From an uncultured Candidatus Poseidoniales archaeon (GTDB taxonomy: Archaea; Thermoplasmatota; Poseidoniia; Poseidoniales; Thalassarchaeaceae), in the NCBI GenBank assembly GCA_964342465.1, contig CAYFFQ010000004.1, positions 95,077 through 159,076 of the forward strand: DNA of 64,000 bases, given 5' to 3'. The translations under genes and the position numbers were made by a program. The notes under the pieces are model-generated. The model was given only the letters and a program-made list of their open reading frames with translations, was not told the DNA's origin and made no database searches. Positions 33,701 through 35,342 of this stretch are shown one piece after another (the first letter of the stretch is position 1; every line of letters begins with the position of its first letter).

Positions 33701-33807
33701 TCCAGTTCAGCTACGGCGAAGATGGTGTGGACCCTACTCACAGCATCAGAGGAGAGGCGGTCAATATCCGCTCTGTTCTAGACAAGGCGATAGGAGGTGG
33801 CAACTGA
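30703..33807 (+). CDS. rpoA1: DNA-directed RNA polymerase subunit A' with ~145 aa internal insertion
   Basis: Zn motifs [17 protein letters not shown] and CTKCH...CMHCG, plus [26 protein letters not shown] and the catalytic [12 protein letters not shown]. The GTG at 30703 overlaps the rpoB stop (GTGA); ATG 30709 or 30712 are alternative starts. Confidence 0.95.
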
Positions 33808-35342
33808 TGGTGGTCAAGTCGGCAACAAAGAAGAAACTGATGGACATGGGAATCGCAGAAGACCACTCTCACAATCTTGCCGATGGTCGAAAGTGGGACG
33901 ATGTCAAAATCCTCTCTCCGGGAGAAATCGCCAAAATCTGTGGTATCGCATCGGATGAGGCGAGACAAATAGGTGAGGTCATCCAGAAATTCGGCAAACG
34001 CACCCGTTCCTCCGCAACCCAATCGACCGCCAGTACAACAGTTGTGCGGAGACGCGCCAAACAGATGGTGAAGGTGCAACAGGAATTGGAGCCATTCGAC
34101 CGCGATGAGAAGTTGGCCCAACTGTCATTAGGATTCAACGAAGGCCCAATCTTCAATGCATTGAAGGATTCCAATGAGGCAGAGGGTGCCTTAATTCCCG
34201 TAAAAGTGCTCAGTGACCTTGCCGACGCCATCGAGCGGCGTGGAATCAGCAAATTGACCTCTAGGCAAGCATCATCTGTCATCTCTGAAACTATCTCAGC
34301 GATGGATAGAACGTCAGTTGACCCGTACGAGGCAGTCGGTATTGTCACCGCCCAATCAATTGGTGAGCCTGGGACACAGATGACAATGCGAACCTTCCAT
34401 TATGCAGGTGTGGCAACAGTCAATGTCACACAGGGTCTGCCTAGAATCATAGAAATTGTGGATGCCAAGAAGGAGCCATCAACTCCAACCATGAGAATTC
34501 ACCTGAAGGAAGGACTGAAAGACGACGAGAAGAAGGTTCGCAACCTCGCTGCATCGTTGGAAATCACCAACGCCAAGGATATTGCCACCATCGAAACCGA
34601 TGTGACTCAGAGGAGAATCACATTGAAACTCATACCATCCAACATGAAGCAGAAGGGGATTAATCCAGTTGAGGCGAGGGAACTTCTCAGCACCAAACTC
34701 CGCCTCTTCGTCGAGGCGGATAGTGATGTCCGACCCAAACTACTGACCATAGTGCCCGGCCGCAAGAAGGAGGGTGATGAAGTGACCCCAAACTACACCG
34801 AACTTCTCGCCTTGGAGGATAAGGTCAAAACTCTCCGACTAAAGGGTGTGGCTGGGATTGAGAGGGCGAACACACAGAAGGATTCCAAGACTGGTGAATA
34901 TTATATCGCCACCATCGGCAGCAACCTCTCTACCATCAGCGATTTTGAGGGGATAGACAGGGCGCGCACCTACACCAACAACATCACTGAGATTTACCAA
35001 TACCTCGGAGTAGAGGCCGCTCGGCAGGCCATCATCAACGAATTGGAACTCACACTACAAGATGCTCGTCTGAATGTTGACATTCGCCACCTTATAGTGG
35101 TGGCAGATGTGATGACGAGCGAAGGTGAAGTGAGGGCGATCGGCCGTCACGGCGTCTCTGGAAACAAACACAGCATCCTCGCGAGAGCGGCCTTCGAAGT
35201 TACTGTGAGCCACCTGCTGACCGCCGGAGTCATCGGCGAAGTTGACGACCTCACCGGAGTTGCTGAGAACATCATCGTCGGTCAACCAGTCGCCCTCGGA
35301 ACTGGCAGTGTTGAGTTGTTCTACATACCGGAAGAGGCTTGA
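33807..35342 (+). CDS. rpoA2: DNA-directed RNA polymerase subunit A'' with ~100-120 aa N-terminal extension
   Basis: Canonical A'' blocks are present: [34 protein letters not shown] and [20 protein letters not shown]. 511 aa versus the usual ~390. The start overlaps the rpoA' stop by 1 nt (TGATG). Confidence 0.95.

Follow-up and report, generated by a model that had tools for sequence, protein, structure and literature searches.

The window examined here is a stretch of 64,000 nucleotides (nt) from an uncultured Candidatus Poseidoniales archaeon of the family Thalassarchaeaceae, phylum Thermoplasmatota (assembly GCA_964342465.1, contig CAYFFQ010000004.1, positions 95,077 to 159,076). Its open reading frames place the gene for RNA polymerase subunit A'' (Rpo1C) within an operon of the order rpoH-rpoB-rpoA'-rpoA''-rpl30e (Table 1). 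The position directly after rpoA' is the one expected for A''. The product is identified by Pfam model PF04998 (RNA_pol_Rpb1_5; E 5.7e-49, 167 bits against a cut-off of 28.5, residues 138-456) and carries the trigger-loop motif GEPGTQMT at residues 186-193. An earlier note, made from the sequence alone, held that this subunit bears a genuine N-terminal extension, made up of a module of about 65 amino acids (aa) paralogous to the N-terminus of RpoH and a basic linker. We find that the extension is a translated and strongly selected add-on, and that its first domain recurs on RpoH and on proteins of virus-like contigs.

Table 1. Coordinates, within the window, of the polymerase operon and of the parts of the A'' N-terminus
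Feature	Position	Strand	Residues	Remarks
rpoH	26421-27011	+	196 aa	
Paralogous head on RpoH	26421-26618	+	1-66 of 196	BLASTP to the A'' head
rpoB	ends at 30706			
rpoA'	30703-33807			stop TGA at 33805-33807
Shine-Dalgarno-like GGAGGTG	33793-33799	+		7 nt ahead of the rpoA'' ATG; from the sequence and relatives
TGATG junction	33805-33809	+		rpoA' stop and rpoA'' start, 1-nt overlap
rpoA''	33807-35342	+	511 aa	ATG at 33807-33809
Head	33807-33998	+	1-64	five-helix degenerate (HhH)2-like domain (probable); residues 1-36 most conserved
Tether	33999-34097	+	65-97	rich in Ser/Thr/Gly/Ala and Arg/Lys; predicted disordered
TTVVRRR motif	34035-34055	+	77-83	sole conserved island of the tether
Spacer	34098-34136	+	98-110	short helix predicted at 99-106
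Canonical A'' (Rpo1C) body	34137-35342	+	about 110 onward	Pfam RNA_pol_Rpb1_5
rpl30e (L30e)	35388-35687			downstream of rpoA''

The extended N-terminus of A''

The canonical A'' of the phylum measures 380-396 aa. The 120 best orthologues listed span 507-531 aa, against 511 aa here, and cover 98-100% of the query. Judging by the names that orthologues bear, the organism belongs to Marine Group II (Poseidoniales, Thalassarchaeaceae). Canonical-length A'' proteins of the phylum (44-49% identical) align with this protein only from about residue 103-130, and the extension is therefore about 110 residues long. The basic Ser/Thr/Arg linker was correctly read in the earlier note, at residues 64-86. 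The canonical sequence does not follow it directly, as had been claimed, and starts about 25 residues later, near residue 110.

Aligned with one another, 16 orthologues of 60-80% overall identity show no variation in residues 1-14, and over residues 1-45 their conservation is close to that of the catalytic core. This N-terminal part of the extension is the best-conserved stretch of A'' outside that core. The next 30-35 residues are variable, except for a T-T-V-V-R patch, which has an invariant R81 and in which T78 and V80 reach at least 90% conservation. The corresponding tether columns hold 28-34 aa, whose net charge in all 16 sequences is +6 to +10. The head has a net charge of 0 to -4. An analogous R-R-V/I-x-hydrophobic patch is found in the tethers of RpoH. 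Beneath the invariant residues the codons vary: among the A'' genes of nine relatives, two to four synonymous versions are seen at most of the 14 leading codons, and Ser5 is encoded by both AGT and TCN. The constraint is therefore on the protein.

Structure prediction agrees with this division. AlphaFold2 (AF2), supplied with a 22-sequence alignment of the head, gives a predicted local distance difference test score (pLDDT) of 82.8 and five helices, at residues 6-13, 18-25, 30-34, 38-45, and 49-63. A model of the full-length protein shows a folded head, pLDDT values below 50 over residues 65-97, and well-predicted helices (pLDDT about 80) from residue 99 onward. In this model the head is a separately folded domain on a flexible linker to a core subunit, an architecture like that of the C-terminal domain of the bacterial alpha subunit (alpha-CTD).

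A mis-called start or a nonfunctional leader, with the true start at an internal methionine (M87 or later) and an upstream frame that is open by chance or a decaying remnant, is almost certainly wrong. Met87 is present in this protein, and a typical A'' is about 390 aa long. However, M87 is unconserved in the A'' alignment, the upstream frame is conserved as protein in all orthologues while its codons vary synonymously, and the N-terminal region folds with good confidence in the model. None of the listed orthologues starts internally. The start signals also lie at residue 1, where the rpoA'' ATG overlaps the rpoA' stop by 1 nt, as the earlier note had described. A GGAGGTG or GGTGGTG sequence stands 6-8 nt before the ATG in all 11 A'' loci of relatives. 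The ATG is directly preceded by TG in 10 of the 11, consistent with a TGATG junction, and by TA in one. The conserved frame, together with the ribosome-binding site and junction at residue 1, thus excludes a mis-called start. In one Poseidoniaceae genome, rpoA'' contains a single in-frame TGA (G028:C23:116630-118192), which is probably an assembly error.

Fold, distribution, and duplication of the head

Pfam recognizes nothing in the N-terminus of either A'' or RpoH, detecting only their RNA_pol_Rpb1_5 and Rpb5_C bodies, and a head profile compared with the sequences in the PDB gave a single stray sub-threshold match, nothing meaningful. A Foldseek search of the PDB returned matches with probabilities of 0.9-0.99 and template modeling (TM) scores of 0.6-0.76, all reported as domains built of two helix-hairpin-helix motifs, or (HhH)2 domains. 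The high-probability matches were the N-terminal domain of RadA/Rad51, the C-terminal domains of FANCM-FAAP24 (TM 0.75-0.76), the C-terminal region of NusA, and SAM domains. The glycine of the first hairpin, G15, is conserved in at least 90% of the polymerase heads.

Profile comparisons link the head to canonical HhH units in steps. With hhalign, and in the N-terminal register throughout, Poseidoniales heads match those of the sister order (probability 82%, E 1.1e-5) and the A'' heads of other families (83%, E 8.5e-6). The heads of these other families in turn match Pfam-certified HHH_5 units of A'' (90%, E 1.8e-6). A hidden Markov model (HMM) built from Poseidoniales heads only also matches A'' N-termini on which it was not trained, in families f6 (3e-7), f18 (4e-5), and f23 (1e-4). 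These comparisons argue that the head is a degenerate (HhH)2-like domain, homologous to the HhH-type A'' arms of Thermoplasmatota families. The alpha-CTD model PF03118 has no match in this protein, its nearest being the A'' of f10 (23.0 bits against a cut-off of 23.8), and the RNA_pol_Rpb5_N jaw model matches neither A'' nor RpoH at E<=10.

N-terminal arms on A'' are widespread in the phylum. We searched 70 further Thermoplasmatota genomes with the full A'' and found that most matches outside Poseidoniales sit in open frames that greatly exceed the canonical A'' length. For 62 loci from 33 families, the sister order included, starts were placed against the upstream rpoA' stop, with a gap that is mostly between -7 and +7 nt. 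The canonical distance from the start to GEPGTQ (70-83 residues) occurs only in f13, f20, f22, f25, and part of f6, and most sampled families have HhH-type modules at the A'' N-terminus. A single module of the same type is found in 11 families (f4, f5 of the sister order, part of f6, f7, f8, f14, f18, f21, f23, f27, and f34); the head of an f7 example reads MAKKDTLKALLKRDVSEEVAKLI, and is followed by KIGKRSSSRSTSKSKKK. Two or three canonical HhH units in tandem are present in seven families (f10, f12, f16, f24, f26, f30, and f32), and those of f10 match Pfam HHH_5 (PF14520) at E 6e-29 to 5e-33. An added domain of about 170 residues occurs in f11, f17, f29, f33, f35, and the sister order, and plain Lys/Arg-rich tails occur in f9, f15, f19, and f28.

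Two of these arrangements deserve a fuller description. The A'' proteins of the sister order and of f11, f14, f17, and f34 (720-870 aa) open with an HhH-like head, continue with the domain of about 170 aa, and often have a second HhH (L043:1489-3765 on the minus strand, L046:304-2886 on the plus strand, L069, L070, L071, L076, and L077). The added domain follows the pattern GFIWT..F.IN..RF..PI.GYIY...KSARQYT, is duplicated in f34, and has no match in Pfam. In the plain-tailed proteins (L088 and L099 of f9, L107 and L115 of f15, L097 of f19, and L066 of f28), A'' opens with 25-100 Lys/Arg-rich residues, for example MVQKKSGTAKKKDKKHQVKK, and no HhH was detected. To judge by their sequences, these tails look like the basic tether in a reduced form.

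Compared with the arms of other Thermoplasmatota, including the Marine Group III type with its extra domain of about 170 aa, the arm described here likewise occupies the extreme A'' N-terminus abutting the A' stop and begins with a homologous module. A Ser/Thr/Lys-rich linker is also seen in f6, f7, and f27. Those arms differ in having no copy on RpoH, in being much less constrained in sequence, and in commonly carrying further domains.

The relationship with RpoH proposed in the earlier note is borne out. Residues 1-84 of A'' and residues 1-84 of RpoH are 35% identical (56% positives, BLASTP E 8e-12). The resemblance is not due to chance, because both copies are present in 41 of 41 relatives and, almost without exception, throughout the order. 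Across this genome and about 190 genomes of the class, there are exactly two copies per Poseidoniales genome, and no copy was found in the sister order at the profile threshold used for this count. The earlier note had also raised the possibility of further carriers. A profile search of this genome found none, and it is on virus-like contigs that many other proteins carry the head. A weak third match in this genome (C2:220700, E 0.185) vanished with an improved profile, and we regard it as due to chance. Of the third matches seen in four relatives, one was a duplicate contig and the other three were absent with a module-only profile.

The label given to the module in the earlier note, RpoH-type, has its history backward. 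HhH arms are found on A'' phylum-wide, whereas RpoH is short outside Poseidoniales, with open frames of 80-121 aa in 18 of 18 non-Poseidoniales genomes against 224-234 aa in Poseidoniales. This distribution argues that the module is A''-borne by origin, old, and phylum-wide, and that the RpoH copy is a derived duplicate specific to the Poseidoniales lineage. The heads of A'' and RpoH have since diverged into two conserved types. An HMM of the RpoH type scores the A'' heads of outgroups better than does an HMM of the Poseidoniales A'' type (in f6, 6e-8 against 0.017), a comparison in which the two HMMs differ in breadth. The ancestral sequence may thus survive in the RpoH copy, and the A'' copy may have shifted to a new, frozen form.

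The body of the Poseidoniales RpoH is itself unusual. Its Rpb5_C domain scores E 1e-6 to 3e-15 in Pfam, against 1e-21 to 6e-31 elsewhere in the phylum. In the RpoH of the window, this 73-position model is matched in two stretches over residues 96-192. The low score and the split match therefore suggest a body that has diverged and is interrupted by an insertion.

Carriers of the head outside the polymerase

When 1.84 billion representative proteins were searched with a profile, 208 matched the head at E<=1e-3 and 145 at E<=1e-10, nearly all aligned from residue 1. We left one protein out of these counts: P0170, a metagenomic protein of 2474 aa with 17 short matches to profile positions 22-38, which is probably an unrelated repeat protein. 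Among the matches listed, those with tails of at least 110 aa were clustered by tail. A'' accounts for 21 and RpoH for 13. The remainder form 12 multi-member groups (40 representatives) and about 22 singletons. The 12 groups are unrelated to the polymerase and to one another, so that metagenomes contain at least 12 recurrent families of this kind. Below, we refer to such proteins as cargo proteins. For most of their heads, the A''-type HMM outscores the RpoH-type.

Conservation among 51 cargo proteins is limited to residues 1-36, and nothing is conserved beyond about residue 45. Within the conserved part, the frequencies approach fixation at M1 (0.98), V3 (0.98), K4 (0.94), T7 (0.98), K8 (0.98), K9 (0.96), L11 (1.0), G15 (0.98), and A21 (0.96), and remain high at L24 (0.90) and R28 (0.86). 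Since conservation stops at residue 36, the portable unit amounts to the first hairpin with its connector helix. Across their 44 opening codons, the heads of cargo and host share 61-69% nucleotide identity and differ at many synonymous sites, which rules out that the cargo genes are recent rpoA'' recombinants. The comparison instead argues for old captures maintained by selection on the protein.

Neither Pfam nor PHROGs recognizes any cargo tail except that of P0208, a metagenomic protein of 851 aa. It has N-terminal zinc fingers, an internal head of the RpoH type at residues 92-144, and an ABC-type ATPase that matches defense models (PADLOC NsnB at 2e-38, PDC-M55A, AriA, and GajA).

We located cargo contigs through exact protein look-ups in metagenomes. 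They resemble viruses or mobile elements, being densely packed with small open reading frames in one direction, at 39-55% G+C against 53% for the window. One marine contig of 8.4 kb (L056: 900-1805, 4519-5532, and 7569-8411) encodes a primase-like protein with a GSKGFHVW motif, a 337-aa protein with an A''-type head, and a homologue of the initiation factor TFB (phrog_20431, E 6e-49), the last being the only protein of the contig that PHROGs recognizes. This contig may thus represent an element with its own initiation factor plus a mimic of the polymerase head. It also contains a tRNA-like stretch near 6300-6530 on the minus strand.

The gene for cargo protein P0233 lies on two contigs of about 100.3 kb from independent samples, with genes for Mom, ERCC4, PCNA, ribonucleotide reductase, and ParA as neighbors. 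Immediately upstream of it is a second gene that bears the head. On a magrovirus-like contig of about 100 kb, two adjacent head-first genes (L083:9554-9985 and 10001-10495) directly follow the genes for ribonucleotide reductase and PCNA. Among magroviruses, group B carries ribonucleotide reductase (PMC5434244). The contigs of about 100 kb, JGI 3300006793 Ga0098055_1000043 and ENA ERZ27249189 k141_27541, fit published magroviruses in size and gene content. A tblastn search of GenBank phages with a 1209-aa protein of such a contig gave no match.

Possible functions of the heads

We propose that the heads of A'' and H are mobile arms of the lower jaw, in which the tether binds nucleic acid and the head docks to a conserved partner that viruses exploit. 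We consider the chances of this reading to be even. Work on other archaea shows that A', A'', and H make up the lower jaw, that H and A'' associate strongly, and that downstream DNA can be cross-linked to H at +10 to +20 (PMC2847245). Both heads would be placed at the DNA-entry side of the polymerase, because A'' and H form the lower jaw beside downstream DNA. The foot/cleft part of Rpb1 shares a single "shelf" module with Rpb5. In Sulfolobus, Rpo13 fills the gap left by the missing Rpb5 jaw domain, and its disordered Lys-rich tail binds downstream double-stranded DNA nonspecifically (PMC2675907, PMC3479171). The basic tether of the arms could contact nucleic acid in the same manner. The first HhH and connector helix, that is, the frozen residues 1-36, would dock to one specific conserved partner, which might be part of the transcription machinery or else a defined feature of DNA or chromatin. 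Viruses of Marine Group II would then have copied this docking handle, sending their own proteins to the same place. On the sequence evidence, the reuse of exactly residues 1-36 by virus-like elements is most easily accounted for by mimicry of such a handle.

A more specific version of this proposal is possible, although we hold it tentatively and regard it as doubtful in its full form. Residues 1-36 could be a portable address tag for a single receptor on the Poseidoniales transcription machinery, which Marine Group II viruses, magrovirus-like as well as smaller elements, append to dozens of unrelated effectors so that these reach the polymerase of the host when it is taken over. If this were true, the copy on the defense-type ATPase would perhaps be a sensor or a decoy.

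Several observations weigh against docking arms of the HhH class that viruses have copied. With regard to the fold, Pfam matched no HhH family at E<=10, either with the full protein or with the isolated N-terminus. Foldseek E-values were only 0.4-2, weak as expected for a query of 64 residues. The direct profile comparison of Poseidoniales heads with canonical HhH units was likewise weak (probability 31%, E 5e-4). The second hairpin, which reads CGI or CGL in Thalassarchaeaceae, is CET in Poseidoniaceae and thus lacks its glycine. As to function, the net charge of the head disfavors DNA binding by the head alone, and the position of the A'' N-terminus on the enzyme is taken from published structures of other archaea and from the shared shelf module. 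The cargo proteins retain only half of the domain and may fold or act differently. Their viral nature is read from gene content: the 20 kb read of a contig of about 100 kb held no capsid gene, a profile scan of IMG/VR gave 27 pattern matches of which none was confirmed, and a back-translated pattern scan gave none.

The main rival is a plain DNA-binding arm. Here, head and tether would form a nonspecific module of the HhH class that binds double-stranded DNA and steadies downstream or upstream DNA on the enzyme, with no specific protein partner, and the cargo would be ordinary DNA-binding viral proteins with a borrowed domain, similar to the spread of Bro-N or KilA-N. Canonical HhH domains bind the DNA backbone nonspecifically. 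The strongly basic tether and the phylum-wide HhH arms fit this explanation, including the tandem HHH_5 domains at the A'' N-terminus of f10, f16, f24, f26, f30, and f32, and Rpo13 provides a precedent (PMC3479171). However, it leaves unexplained why residues 1-14 are invariant at about 60% A'' identity, and why M1, V3, K4, T7, K8, K9, L11, and G15 are kept at 94-100% in unrelated cargo families. Furthermore, the cargo holds the first HhH and connector helix, not a full (HhH)2, and the head is without net positive charge. We regard a plain arm as unlikely, though it is a serious competitor.

It is also conceivable, though improbable, that the A'' and RpoH heads pair with each other, as ERCC1-XPF or FANCM-FAAP24 do, and clamp downstream DNA, with cargo heads breaking or exploiting the clamp. 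There are exactly two heads per genome, they sit on subunits that touch (PMC2847245), they have split into two conserved types, and the (HhH)2 domains of FANCM-FAAP24 are among the best structural matches. Yet pairing is not the ancestral function, because most other Thermoplasmatota have a head on A'' only.

Slightly less probable still is a role unrelated to nucleic acids, in which the head works, for instance, as a chaperone-recognition tag, as an intramolecular plug, or through post-translational control at the KKK patch, and cargo enters the same processing pathway: an extremely conserved N-terminal unit of about 36 residues on many unrelated proteins does resemble targeting or processing tags, but fold and homology point to nucleic acid-binding HhH domains, the head stays in frame with essential polymerase subunits, and no candidate processing enzyme was found.

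The head resembles several known systems and belongs to none of the alpha-CTD, Rpo13, or the Rpb5 jaw. Like the alpha-CTD (PF03118), it is a small domain, probably of the HhH class, on a flexible linker to a core subunit, with two per enzyme. The bacterial alpha-CTD contacts DNA and proteins. It differs in being C-terminal, bacterial, carried by an assembly subunit, and without sequence match to this head. It is also the target of visiting activators, whereas here the putative visitors, the virus-like proteins, carry the head themselves.

Rpo13 of Sulfolobales, which lies beside Rpo5/H where downstream DNA enters, is likewise a small helical unit with a disordered Lys/Arg tail, and the present heads may occupy a similar place. 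It is, however, a separate subunit with a helix-turn-helix and a C-terminal basic tail; the present heads are fused to A'' and H and are HhH-like. The N-terminal jaw of eukaryotic Rpb5 is, like the RpoH head, an extra N-terminal domain on H/Rpb5 positioned to guide downstream DNA, as the RpoH head may be. Its fold is different, and the A'' head has no eukaryotic counterpart. With the (HhH)2 domains of RadA/Rad51, ERCC1/XPF, FANCM/FAAP24, and NusA (HHH_5), the head would share five helices in two hairpins plus a connector. It differs in falling below Pfam detection, in its degenerate second hairpin, and in an N-terminal helix conserved far beyond what is usual.

In our search of the archaeal transcription literature, neither the Poseidoniales heads nor any N-terminal arm on A'' turned up. 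Two published accounts report that no archaeon has an N-terminal extension on subunit H (PMC3906176, PMC3479171), and a 2026 survey of archaeal small-subunit evolution mentions neither Thermoplasmatota nor Poseidoniales. New here are the survey of the phylum family by family, the chain of homology that leads to certified HhH units, the direction of the duplication, the finding that most cargo heads are of the A'' type, and the limit of the shared unit to 36 residues.

Here, we describe a phylum in which A'' carries HhH-type arms, one order that appears to have copied the arm onto H and frozen its sequence, and virus-like elements that reuse its 36-residue head. The authors of the Rpo13 studies speculated that analogous elements exist in other archaea (PMC2675907, PMC3479171), and the arms are candidates for such DNA-entry elements. 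At 64 residues, the head lends itself to recombinant expression, and by prediction it folds alone. If residues 1-36 do act as an address for the transcription machinery, the two heads of the polymerase would be both a functional arm and an Achilles heel that viruses mimic. The head could thus offer a handle on how viruses and hosts contend over transcription in a lineage that has not been cultured.

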